DNA of 63,795 nt, counting the filler, from Octopus bimaculoides (taxonomy: Eukaryota), in assembly GCF_001194135.2 (NCBI RefSeq). It is 6 parts of 5 records of this genome, joined end to end, with 100 filler letters (N's around TTAATTAATTAA, not from the genome) between each part and the next. Parts side by side here need not be neighbours in the genome. Positions count along the whole stretch, not along the records: positions 1 to 11,297 come from NC_068985.1; positions 11,398 to 20,697 come from NC_068984.1; positions 20,798 to 49,327 come from NC_068981.1; positions 49,428 to 57,425 come from NC_068984.1; positions 57,526 to 62,622 come from NW_026319571.1; positions 62,723 to 63,795 come from NW_026405958.1. One strand, given 5' to 3'. Below, one piece after another: positions 561-63,521 of this stretch. The notes below the pieces were generated by a model. It made no database searches and had not been told where the DNA came from. It saw nothing but the letters and a program-made list of their open reading frames with translations. Made by a program: the position numbers and the translations under genes. Numbering within the stretch: position 1 is the stretch's first letter; each line of letters begins with the position of its first letter.

Positions 561-884
561 AGAAGATACCTGGGGTGTACTTCGGGACAAATCTGTAAAA
601 GAATATCTAATCATTATAGTACTTTTAGAGATAGAAGGAAAATAGCAAGCACTAGCCTTAGTAAATTCATCTGGGAATTCAAAGAACAAAAAAAGCCATA
701 TTGGTTAGAATGGTCGATTATCATGAGATCTTTTCCATATGAGAGGGGTAAGAAATACTGTTTGCTATGTACCTTAGAACTTTATTACATATTATTCTCT
801 AAGGGTAAGTTGATAAATAAACTAACAAATAATGCTCTGAAATGTACACATATTTTAAGACATAATTTTCGTTGGTTTAAATAA
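561..884 (+). mobile_element. 5'-truncated GIY-YIG endonuclease domain of a Penelope-like element (copy 1)
   Basis: Manual translation, open frame: RRYLGCTSGQICKRISNHYSTFRDRRKIASTSLSKFIWEFKEQKKPYWLEWSIIMRSFPYERGKKYCLLCTLELYYILFSKGKLINKLTNNALKCTHILRHNFRWFK*. It has the YLG...R..NH..F...ST.LS..IW..K...W.I....PY....C.LC..E...I pattern of Penelope-like element (PLE) endonucleases. Confidence 0.85.
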
Positions 885-1294
885 AATTGAAATATGACAA
901 GGTATTATAATGCATTATACCATAGTAGTTAGTCCATAGACAGGTCATACTAATATAATTTACCAATAGCAGCAAGGATTTTGTAAAATCCTTTAAAGAT
1001 AATATAGTATAGATTCCCATGGTAGTTGAAGATTAGATATAATTTATAGCAAATTACAATATAAGTTTAGGTCTTAAAGTAGGCCACATTAGTATATAAT
1101 TTACCAATAGCAGTTGTGATCTTTACTATAACTTTTAGTGACAATTGAGGATTGAGTTCAATTATAATAGAGAATTGACTATAACCTATAGTACATTGTA
1201 GTAACCAATTTAGGGGTATTATTGATAATTTAGTTAAAAATATTTCATTAAGACTCTCCAGATTATCTGCTAATAAAAGGATTTTTAATAATGG

Positions 1295-1820
1295 AGCTCA
1301 ATTTTATATTTCGGCATAAAATTGGGCAGTTTATAAAGAGAAGATTTTCTATATTGAAACTGGTTGTAGTATAATAATAATAATAATAATCATAATAATG
1401 ATATATAATATTGGATATTAAGGCAGGCCATATTAAAATATTAAAGTTACAAGTAGCGGCTGTGATTTTGCCATTAACTTCTAGGCACAATTTAGTATGG
1501 ATTCAATTATAATGGAGAGTTATTTATAACTTATAGTACAATATAGTGTGTTATTAGATCTTAAAGCAGGCTATATAAATGTATAACTTGACAATAGCAA
1601 TTGTGCGTTTTGAATAAAATTCTAGAGGTAGGATAACACACTATAGATCTCCATTCTAATGAATTTATAACCTAGAGTGCATAGAATATAATATTAGGTC
1701 CTAAAGCAGGCCATATTAATATATTAATATGTAACTTAAATATAACACCTGTGGATTTTAGAAAAAACTCCTAGAGATAATAATTCCTATTGTAATTGAA
1801 GGTTATTTATAATTTATTTA
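1295..1820 (+). repeat. Right arm of the long inverted repeat; part of the 3' region of PLE copy 1, built from diverged ~140-160 bp subrepeats
   Basis: Matches 1-560 in reverse. The anchor AA(A/G)GCAGGC(C/T/A) recurs at about 1420, 1563, 1703 and 1864. Confidence 0.9.
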
Positions 1821-2168
1821 TAATTCATATTTTATAGTACTATATAGTATAATATTAGATTTTAAGGCAGGCATATCAATGCACGATTTACCAATAGTAA
1901 TTGTAGGCTTTACAATAGCTCCTAGGATAATATAATTTATGTGCCTAGAATAATTTAATTACTATTGGAATAGAAATTTGAGTAATAATTATAACAGATT
2001 CATATAATATGGCAAAGGGTTACCTCCCCTTAATGGAATTAGTTGTAAGAAGAGAAAAATTATTTTAAGTCATTTAACGCTAGAAATACGGTATGGATTT
2101 TCAAATTTTTATTTTTTGATTTTTTTGTTTGATTTATTCATTATGTTTTTTTTTGTTCTAAAAAAGTT

Positions 2169-2255
2169 ATTCCTGATGAAGTGTATGGCAACTGATATAT
2201 TTGACTTATACTTGATGGTCAAATATAGCTGTATACAGAAATGTTAACATCGCAT
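2169..2255 (+). ncRNA. Minimal type-I hammerhead ribozyme (slightly degenerate), 3' of PLE copy 1
   Basis: CTGATGA 2173-2179; stem II GTGTATGGC/GCTGTATAC plus ATATTTGAC/GTCAAATAT; GAAA 2238-2241; palindromic stem III ATGTTAACAT; AUC cleavage triplet; stem I ATTC/GCAT has one mismatch. Confidence 0.7.
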
Positions 2256-60539: not shown

Positions 60540-61392
60540 TTAATGATTAATGGCCTCTGGCTTGAAATCAGAAACAGAGGGGTTTATCATAGCAGCCCAA
60601 GATCAATGCCTACCTACAAAGAACTACCAGGCCAACATATTAAAGAACGGCAGCTCCCCATTATGTCGTATATGCCAACAACAAAATGAGACCATCGATC
60701 ATGTTGTCTCCATGTGCAGTCTGCTTGCGCCTACAGAGTATCTCAACAGGCATGATAGAGCTGCACAATATATTCACTGGGTAATATGCAAAAACCTGGA
60801 CTTGCCCCATGATAAAAACTGGTGGGAACACAAACCACCCCCAGTACTTGAAAATGATCACATTGCACTCCTCTGGAACTTCACCATTCAAACTGACAGA
60901 AAGATAGACGCAAATAGGCCAGNNNNNNNNNNNNNNNNNNNNNNNNNNNNNNNNNNNNNNNNNNNNNNNNNNNNNNNNNNNNNNNNNNNNNNNNNNNNNN
61001 NNNNNAGCAAAATGTGGAATCTGAAGACGAAAACAATACCTATTGTCATAGGTGCCCTGGGAATGACAGCGAAACGGGCTGATTACTACCTAGCTCAGAT
61101 ACCAGGAAACCCCAAAATGGCTGAAGTTCAAAAGATAGTGCTCATGGGAACTGCCCATATCCTACGTAAAATATTGTCTATGTGATCTCAAATTTTAAAG
61201 CAAACACATAATTTTCTTATGGTTTCTTAAACATTCACTTGAACAAAACTGTACAAATCCAAATATATGGTACCCTAGGCATAACACGTACATGAACTTC
61301 TAACTTGTTGTCTCTTGAGGTCTCTGGGTGAGACTTGGATCCAACTTGTACAAATGCAAAACAAAAGTCAAACATAAAATAATAATAATAAT
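60540..61392 (+). mobile_element. 5'-truncated R4/Dong-type non-LTR retrotransposon (CCHC knuckle + RLE + 3' UTR) flanked by (TAA)n
   Basis: ORF 60550-61185: CRICQQQNETIDHVVSMC, YLNRHD, LLWNFTIQTDRKIDANRP, PIVIGALG, QKIVLMGTAHILR. (AAT)n at 60508-60536 and 61378-61392. Confidence 0.92.
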
Positions 61393-62782
61393 CTTTATCT
61401 TTTAGGGACAAGATTATCAGAAGAATTTTCGACACTTGAAAGATTATTCAAAGTGTGTGGATATCTAAGGTTACAAATAGTAACCTGCTACCCACAAAAA
61501 TTATTAAGGGAATAAGAACACACTTGAGTCAAATGGAATAAATAATAATAATAATAATAATAATAATAATAATAATAATAATAATAATAATTTCGTTGTT
61601 ATTGAAAAATGTAATGATTTCAAACATCGACAAGAACTGACATATTTTTGTCTGGGGTGGGCAGGGATGTAAGCAGAGTCAACCAAATCTAACCCAGTAC
61701 TTAACTGGTTGTTTTACTACATCAACCCCGGAAAATGTAACGGGCGAAATCAAATTCACGTACACACGCAGAACATCCCACCAACACAAAACACACAAAC
61801 AGACACACGCACACATACAAATACACACACGTGCACACACACAACACCCTGACAAATATCGCACACATACACACACACACCACTAGGACAATTATAACGA
61901 CACAAACATACTCAGACAGAGACACGCACACTCTCTCGTACACACACACTCACGTACACACACATAACATCCCCACCAACACAAAACACAAACAGACACA
62001 CGCACGCATACAGACGCACACATACACACACGCGAACAAACACATACACACACATGCGCACATACAACACCCTAATAAATATTAATCACACTCATACACA
62101 CACACACACACAAACGTGCATATATATACACACCATCCTACCAAATATAAAACACACACAGACCCATATACACACACCACAATAAACTCTGAGCCCAATC
62201 AAAAACGGCCCCCACACACAAACACAAGCACATGCATATACACACACACATAGAGACATGCACAGAGACACACATTCTCACACCATTCTGACCTCTAAGA
62301 CCAGTCCCCAAAACCACTGAACCATGACAGACTAGCCCAGAAACAAAAAAATCCTTTCAATTCTACATTGCTCTTCCTTTCCCCCACCCCAACCAGCCTC
62401 CCACACTGTCCCTTAAAATAACAAATATTCCCTAGCTATACACAAGAGAGAAAACATGTTAAAAATTTTTTGTAAATTCTTAAATATATCTCTTTCTGTG
62501 TATATATATACTACCAAGCAAACATGATTTTTATTGAATATATATATACTACCAAACATGATTTTTATTGACCTCCTAATACTTTTTGTTGAATACTCTC
62601 TTGTAAACTGTTTTTAACATTTNNNNNNNNNNNNNNNNNNNNNNNNNNNNNNNNNNNNNNNNNNNNTTAATTAATTAANNNNNNNNNNNNNNNNNNNNNN
62701 NNNNNNNNNNNNNNNNNNNNNNAATATCGAGGTCTCTTTCTTTCTTTTGTTGTCCTTTCTATCAATATGTATGTATATATAT

Positions 62783-63139
62783 ATTTACCAGTGTAAAATT
62801 ACTTCCGCTACTGATGTCTTTTTTTATATAGGTAATTCTTCTCAGTTATCTAAAAGAATTTCTAATCATTACTCTACATTTGGGGATCCTAATAAATGCA
62901 ACAGCACAGGGCTTAGTCAATTAATGTGGTATCTAAAAGACCATAATAAACAATTTAATTTAGATTGGTTGATTCTCTCAATTTCATTCCCATATGATGA
63001 AGGAAAAGAATTCTGCCAACTCTGTAATAGTGAACTATTTTCTATTCTTTTTTCTAAGAATCCTCTTGGAAACACATTTATAGAGCATGCTTATCAATGT
63101 AAACATTGTCAGAAACATACCTTTAGTTCATATAAGTGA
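62783..63139 (+). mobile_element. Complete Penelope-like GIY-YIG endonuclease domain (copy 4), 5'-bounded by (TA)n
   Basis: IYQCKITSATDVFFYIGNSSQLSKRISNHYSTF..NSTGLSQLMWYLKDHNKQFNLDW..SFPYDEGKEFCQLCNSE..CKHCQKHTFSSYK*. Confidence 0.92.
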
Positions 63140-63438
63140 TATCTACCATTCTATATAATTTGAACATTGATTTTCTTCTAACATTTACTTCCACTAGATA
63201 TATCTATTTCCAGCCTTTAAGCTTTTATTTTAATTCACATATCGCTCTATATTTCTCCTTTATTGGTTTTCTGCTTATTTCTTTCCTTTACCCTTTCTCT
63301 TTCTATAGGCTACCTTTGACGTTATATCTTCTAACGTTTTTTTTAAAAAACTTAATAGAGTTCTGTTCATCATTATACACACCCATCACATTCTGTGAAA
63401 ATGTCTTATTGATGAGTTTCGTTTCTTTCTTTCTTTCT

Positions 63439-63521
63439 TTCCCTGATGAGAAGATTACATTGTTTTACACCATTTTATTCCTTTGGAATAATATCAATGT
63501 TGCCTTCAAAACATGTCGGAA
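63439..63521 (+). ncRNA. Hammerhead of PLE copy 4 with GAAA changed to AAAA (probably inactive)
   Basis: TTCC-CTGATGA-G...C-AAAA-CATGT-C-GGAA; homologous to 28558-28644. Confidence 0.75.

Follow-up and report, generated by a model that had tools for sequence, protein, structure and literature searches.

What does it mean when a Penelope-type endonuclease is followed by a hammerhead ribozyme, on the same strand, four times in one stretch of octopus DNA? The stretch, which we call the window, is 63,795 nucleotides of Octopus bimaculoides (assembly GCF_001194135.2), joined from six parts of five records. An earlier note made from its sequence offered two answers: truncated or solo copies of Penelope-like elements (PLEs), or a dedicated unit of endonuclease (EN) and ribozyme that circularises and borrows reverse transcriptase (RT) in trans. 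We conclude that the four modules are very probably independent, ordinary 5′-truncated and decaying insertions of undescribed Hydra-clade Penelope-like families. A dedicated EN and ribozyme unit is improbable.

Each module consists of one EN frame and one hammerhead match.

561–884 (+): EN1, a Hydra-type GIY-YIG endonuclease that begins at RYLG (cut at the second motif), without the CxCx5C linker, the first Y motif or a start codon
4179–4739 (−): EN2, the end of an N-rich linker, CxCx5C and the entire EN; its ATG abuts (TA)n at 4741–4753
28854–29075 (−): EN3, the C-terminal 73 residues only, without both GIY-YIG motifs and the RxxxH stretch
62783–63139 (+): EN4, which begins at IYQC directly after (TA)n, without linker or start codon
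2169–2255 (+): hammerhead 1, minimal type I with a palindromic stem III, a predicted cut after 2251 and an extra A before GAAA
3532–3583 (−): hammerhead 2, a descriptor match in which U16.1 and C15.2 are lost
28558–28644 (−): hammerhead 3, with triplet GUU and a predicted cut after 28562
63439–63521 (+): hammerhead 4, of the hammerhead 3 family, with AAAA for the GAAA core (G12 lost)

The four frames are real. A profile made from 36 database EN rows recovers them at the coordinates and strands first proposed (independent E-value, iE, of 5e-26 for EN1, 2.5e-41 for EN2, 3.7e-12 for EN3 and 8.8e-25 for EN4), and the same profile finds no fifth copy in the window. Pfam recognises EN4 alone as GIY-YIG, and weakly (E 0.0046, below cut-off). 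Pairwise amino-acid identity among the four is 36–48%, with EN3 and EN4 the exception at 67%, so that the earlier count of at least three diverged subfamilies is fair. A candidate fifth scrap at 62576–62613 was rejected; 53 of 300 shuffles reached the same score.

The hammerheads stand up equally well as motifs. A descriptor of the minimal type I hammerhead with one mismatch allowed, composed after the motifs had been seen, has exactly four matches in the window (cores at +2173, −3579, −28640 and +63443), compared with a mean of 0.12 and a maximum of 1 on 60 block-wise dinucleotide shuffles. Every match lies downstream of its EN on the same strand, as had been claimed, about 1290, 600, 215 and 300 nt past the stop in modules 1 to 4. 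With no mismatch allowed, hammerhead 3 is the only one of the four to pass. Among the matches listed from an Rfam E-value scan (150 of 159) none was to a hammerhead family; they were microsatellite and hairpin matches. Free folding returned the hammerhead fold for none of the four (z-scores −1.4 to −4.1), a result that says little where the active form is presumed to be a dimer. A separate motif, G[AG]GTTAC(C)TCCCCT, occurs at 2017 (+) and 3868 (−) in the 3′ untranslated regions (UTRs) of modules 1 and 2, 150–290 nt ahead of the hammerhead; the pattern, picked after being seen, has no other match in the window.

To which PLEs do the modules belong? Craig et al. (2021, PMC8557442) define the Hydra clade by a CxCx5C linker and the absence of CCHH, by CxxC and CxH next to a conserved E and a conserved N, and by hammerheads and insertion into (TA)n. 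EN2 has the linker, as CSCRDRNKC, and in EN1, EN3 and EN4 the linker region is cut off. None of the window ENs has CCHH; in the alignment they carry CxxC before the conserved E and CxH after the conserved N, except that Arg replaces the CxH cysteine in EN3. In all four modules the hammerhead is a sense-strand motif close to the 3′ end. Runs of (TA)n flank module 2 on both sides, module 1 on its 3′ side and module 4 on its 5′ side. A profile search retrieves 6623 representatives at E up to 0.001; among 151 retrieved proteins, CxxC..E is present in 146 and N..CxH in 133. The closest named proteins belong to O. bimaculoides. Judged by these motifs, the window ENs match the Hydra clade as PMC8557442 describes it, down to the hammerhead shortly behind the EN, and the RT and thumb motifs of the clade are likewise present in the linked proteins P0155 and P0111, described below.

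The Hydra clade in octopus is already published, a point absent from the earlier note. Hydra-1_Obim of O. bimaculoides, complete at 2507 bp, is listed in File S1 of PMC8557442. Compared by eye with the rows of Files S1 and S2 and the alignment figure of that paper, the window ENs and hammerheads differ, and we therefore take the modules to be other families than Hydra-1_Obim. Two further features depart from the clade as described: the unusually long N-rich linkers that flank the thumb on either side in the EN2 family (P0155, P0011), and the 1.3-kb 3′ region of module 1 with six repeats and a thumb relic. The octopus repeat list would thus gain at least three apparently uncatalogued Hydra-clade families where the lists of PMC8557442 give one, which is useful for annotation and unsurprising. 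Penelope-like families have been reported in O. vulgaris, in a paper whose available text contains neither the word hydra nor the word ribozyme (PMC13282606).

A truncated copy implies a longer parent, and the earlier note had proposed looking for one that contains RT. For EN2 such a family exists. Protein P0011 matches EN2 at 75% over 111 residues, from the second residue of EN2, and runs 217 residues upstream of this match, through the thumb. With the P0011 thumb as query we found P0155 (O. bimaculoides, 360 residues), which has the RT core motifs MGAPDSA, YRDDA and SNHP and shares a 167-residue overlap with P0011 (93%). Because P0155, P0011 and EN2 overlap in turn, the EN2 family has RT upstream, on the evidence of two overlapping proteins, not one open reading frame (ORF). 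P0111 of Argonauta hians holds RT and an EN2-type EN in a single frame. The RWK and DKT motifs, which Hydra-clade elements carry in the N-terminal part of RT, would lie upstream of the starts of P0155 and P0111; the relative P0061 has RWQ and DKT. The ATG at 4739 was rejected as a candidate for the true start of EN2, given its position at the (TA)n junction, the upstream continuation of P0011 and the stop at codon 29. Long low-complexity N/T-rich linkers flank the second thumb block in P0155, P0011, P0002 and P0111, two of which are annotated merely as uncharacterised proteins.

Related metagenome loci show the same arrangement. RT is upstream of EN in 77 of 77, by construction, because the loci were chosen with an RT–EN query. 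Of the 44 RT–EN loci among these with room for it, 35 have a hammerhead core no more than 400 nt past the EN, compared with one of 44 on the other strand; a strict hammerhead descriptor finds nine of 44. EN followed by a hammerhead is therefore the normal 3′ end of Hydra elements. One Hydra-type metagenome locus has hammerheads on both sides of its RT–EN ORF, at 110 and 2596, giving a 2486-nt unit. In most Hydra proteins Pfam does not recognise the RT (RVT_1 matched one of 12, at E 0.019), and a word-based search for longer proteins yielded one protein among 7905 candidates, without an RT core, which is weak evidence.

If the modules are truncated copies, their 5′ ends should tell. Three further features beside module ends need to be named here.

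2423–2457 (no strand): (TA)n that borders module 1 on its 3′ side, adjoining an N gap
3924–4078 (no strand): SINE-like repeat (SINE, short interspersed nuclear element) of very high copy number, (GAT)n-tailed and lying in the module 2 3′ UTR
4078–4206: 39-bp tandem duplication of the stop-codon region of module 2, beside the SINE-like repeat

The four copies have four different 5′ break points, one in the linker and three inside the EN. The break of module 2 is in the linker and that of module 4 at IYQC, each bordered by (TA)n; module 1 begins with RYLG where it meets an inverted arm, and module 3, which abuts a SINE-like repeat, breaks within the C-terminal half. Part of the EN is missing in three of the four and none has a usable start. 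Differing ends, in this check of the four window copies, are as for plain truncation. The SINE-like repeat interrupts or abuts modules 2, 3 and 4, interrupting module 4 at 63556; it is also seen at eight or more other places, for example 10889–11047, 32505–32653, 43692–43843 and 63556–63698.

The copies also seem to be decaying. For modules 1 and 2, we read the letters of other copies from contigs aligned at 80% likeness or more, the small-share runs X15–X20 being set aside, with 40 of 386 difference rows listed for module 2 and 40 of 105 for module 1. Two changes in EN2 are missing from the other copies: an in-frame stop at 4653–4655 (codon 29) and a Cys where YIG has its glycine. For an element of the anole, PMC11167929 reports that DNA cleavage is lost with G19A and with Y17A in the GIY-YIG site; the EN2 glycine may correspond in position. 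Among the rows listed, EN2 shows 22 differences, nine of them at 90% depth or more in both DNA runs (six missense, one stop, two silent), and EN1 shows 17, four of them at 90% or more in all three DNA runs, every one missense. These changes fit the neutral expectation of 68% missense, 29% silent and 3–4% nonsense, with the reservation that the 90% filter favours conserved sites; what is peculiar to copies 1 and 2 is mostly missense or nonsense, which points to ordinary copies. The ribozymes have fared no better, with three of the four damaged. Stem III of hammerhead 2 is broken, the lost U16.1 and C15.2 being kept elsewhere (rows 3537 and 3543; 100% of depth in X1, 90–91% in X5), and a stem I mismatch at 2253 in hammerhead 1 is absent from other copies, which have the other letter at 100% of depth in three DNA runs. 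In modules 1 and 2 the tails exceed most EN bins in summed contig depth, a quantity to be read as a trend and not as copy number.

The earlier note had set open EN frames against neighbours riddled with stops, and this contrast holds in part. The EN frames total one stop in 484 codons. A long interspersed nuclear element (LINE) at about 5400–8600 (−), which we take to be RTE-type, is broken in its 5′ half (about six frame changes and five stops in some 450 codons, by eye), but it keeps a 306-codon open RT frame with a Pfam RVT_1 match, and a mariner transposase fragment with an internal deletion at 35454–36047 (+; Pfam HTH_48 and Transposase_1) keeps a 197-codon open frame. In simulated neutral decay, the probability of at most one disablement in 484 codons is 0.50–0.83 at 1.4% divergence, 0.13–0.54 at 3% and 0.02–0.28 at 5%. 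An age could be measured for module 1 only, so that the open frames speak mildly for the earlier note.

That age comes from the unusual layout of module 1.

1–560 (−): inverted, 5′-truncated partner arm of module 1, a copy of 1295–1820 that runs off the window start
905–1990 (+): six diverged units of about 145 bp, 56–75% identical, in the 3′ region of module 1
1191–1358 (+): Hydra RT connection/thumb relic (iE 3e-08), between units 2 and 3 behind EN1 and followed by (AAT)n

The arm differs from 1295–1820 by 14 substitutions in 526 aligned columns plus two gaps (Kimura two-parameter distance 2.7%), or 1.4% divergence per arm. It is the adjacent inverted truncated copy that is usual for PLE insertions, a pattern described in PMC8557442. 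The relic changes one statement of the earlier note, that no recognisable RT lies beside the modules: no Hydra-type RT catalytic core is found in the window (best iE 3.4), yet a piece of RT connection and thumb remains 300 bp behind EN1. A stop in the relic is common to both arms, and it was therefore dead before the inversion. It is only distantly like P0155. Among contigs at least 80% identical to the relic, some run on into an intact N-H-P-type motif (loose ends before 1216–1218, by eye), so that related RT-thumb DNA exists in the genome.

How, then, would such modules arise? The parent would be ordered RT core, thumb, N-rich linker, CxCx5C, EN, 3′ UTR, minimal hammerhead and tail, an order that the EN2 family and the 77 related loci show piecewise. 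By analogy with published work on PLEs, the RT–EN protein would nick AT-rich or (TA)n DNA, and copying would start near the tail and usually end early. The resulting copies, 0.5–1.9 kb long, would keep the tail, the hammerhead and some or all of the EN, and no RT. The ORF ends with the EN, so that every short copy would present as EN plus hammerhead without RT. Template switching may have produced the inverted arm of module 1. Once inserted, the copies would mutate freely, as copies 1 and 2 show and as lost conserved letters suggest for copies 3 and 4.

A circularising EN and ribozyme unit, by contrast, finds no support. There is one hammerhead per module and no flanking pair. In PMC4209133 (Cervera and De la Pena 2014), minimal hammerheads are mostly single and probably tied to truncated PLEs, and as single motifs they showed no cleavage in vitro. 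Those of PLE pseudo-long terminal repeats (pseudo-LTRs) in that paper resemble the window motifs in the short stem I, the long stem II and the palindromic 15.2–16.2 region; the window motifs differ in stem II inserts of 58–60 nt (hammerheads 1, 3 and 4) and in their damage. Three ordinary cDNA runs, sampled at about 6% of each (X21 and X22 for module 2, X23 for module 1), showed no piles of RNA beginnings or ends in the two modules, fragmented cDNA of this kind being a weak test for circles. RNA depth over the modules was low and in both directions. In X23, one of 141 aligned reads was 99% alike to module 1, and RNA reads fell at none of the six listed joints.

Nor do the modules resemble the known animal retrozymes closely. 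Animal non-LTR retrozymes are non-coding tandem repeats of about 150–450 bp, highly expressed as circles (PMC7229834; bioRxiv 10.64898/2026.07.22.740005). Retrozymes and modules share a type I hammerhead, and the proposed origin of retrozymes is in PLE termini. The window modules, however, are single and 0.5–1.9 kb long, and modules 1 and 2 are barely seen in the three cDNA runs; all four hold EN coding sequence, and none is made of tandem 150–450-bp units each with a hammerhead. No hammerhead occurs even in the six 145-bp units of module 1. Octopus goes unmentioned in the main texts of the two retrozyme papers, and an EN-only PLE unit was not found in the literature searched, a limited check.

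Several observations weigh against truncation as the whole account. An EN tree of 41 rows (26 of the 77 metagenome loci, 11 proteins and the four window frames) puts EN1, EN3, EN4 and P0013 in one long-branch clade (100/94, bootstrap not fully settled), and no RT-bearing member of the EN1/EN3/EN4 clade was found among 155 retrieved proteins. The out-of-order thumb relic behind EN1 is unexplained by plain truncation. A total of one stop over 484 codons, with no clear frameshift, is expected only for young copies, and contig pieces from other copies differ from module 2 by about 5–15% among the pieces listed. Finally, the missense count is biased upward, silent sites varying among copies and passing the 90% filter less often.

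These points leave some room for a lineage, comprising EN1, EN3 and EN4, that lacks RT altogether and is copied in trans by another Hydra RT, with its EN under selection and its hammerhead setting RNA ends or a circle. Were this so, a retroelement would bring its own targeting enzyme and borrow only the RT. The missing RT-bearing relative speaks for it, as do the stop-free frames of EN1, EN3 and EN4, the starts of P0013 and EN4 near the same IYQ motif, and the coverage of all of module 1, relic included, by many contigs. The ratio of nonsynonymous to synonymous divergence between EN3 and EN4 (0.23/0.93 = 0.24) shows past selection, which equally fits an autonomous parent and cannot separate the rival readings. 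Yet the three copies begin at three points inside the EN, none with a start codon; each has a single hammerhead, of the kind left uncleaved in PMC4209133; RT-thumb DNA with an intact motif persists in the genome (by eye); and the RNA end piles are missing from the three runs, weak as that test is for modules 1 and 2. We consider such a lineage very doubtful, and it is just as hard to credit that, within it, the relic is the scar of the rearrangement that removed the RT. An unlikely but more serious candidate for module 1 is that it copies a rearranged, protein-dead subfamily, born of template jumps in a tandem transcript and amplified passively in trans with the EN as passenger. The relic between units 2 and 3 has its stop in both arms, none of the six listed joints skips it, and no loose end falls at about 1200 among those listed. 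The comparison of joints, however, excluded the microsatellite at 1359–1407 and covered only the loose ends listed, and RT-bearing copies elsewhere may account for the depth over the relic. That the modules are solo pseudo-LTRs, left where the terminal repeats of full-length elements recombined, is a poor prospect. Pseudo-LTRs are themselves truncated copies (PMC8557442), and a solo one would look similar; but the direct 5′ junctions of modules 2 and 4 with (TA)n, and the inverted arm of module 1, are those of primary insertions, and no RT core remains in the window. The outcome would in any case be the same dead debris. Ordinary 5′ truncation of Hydra-clade elements remains the reading supported by the differing 5′ ends, the RT parent of EN2 and the missense and nonsense changes, which bear out, as far as each could be checked, three of the four conditions under which the earlier note would have called the modules truncated debris.

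The window has a G+C content of 34%, includes 5437 N and consists mostly of microsatellites and repeats. Long near-perfect hairpins at 31405–31575 and 45643–45754, below Rfam cut-offs, are likely foldbacks resembling miniature inverted-repeat transposable elements. A further non-LTR element is represented at 60547–61185 (+) by its C-terminal part (Pfam zf-RVT, E 1e-4). An exon-like frame at about 39580–39720 (+) matches ARMC4/ODAD2 (E 1e-10), and the region is therefore likely to lie within introns of this gene.

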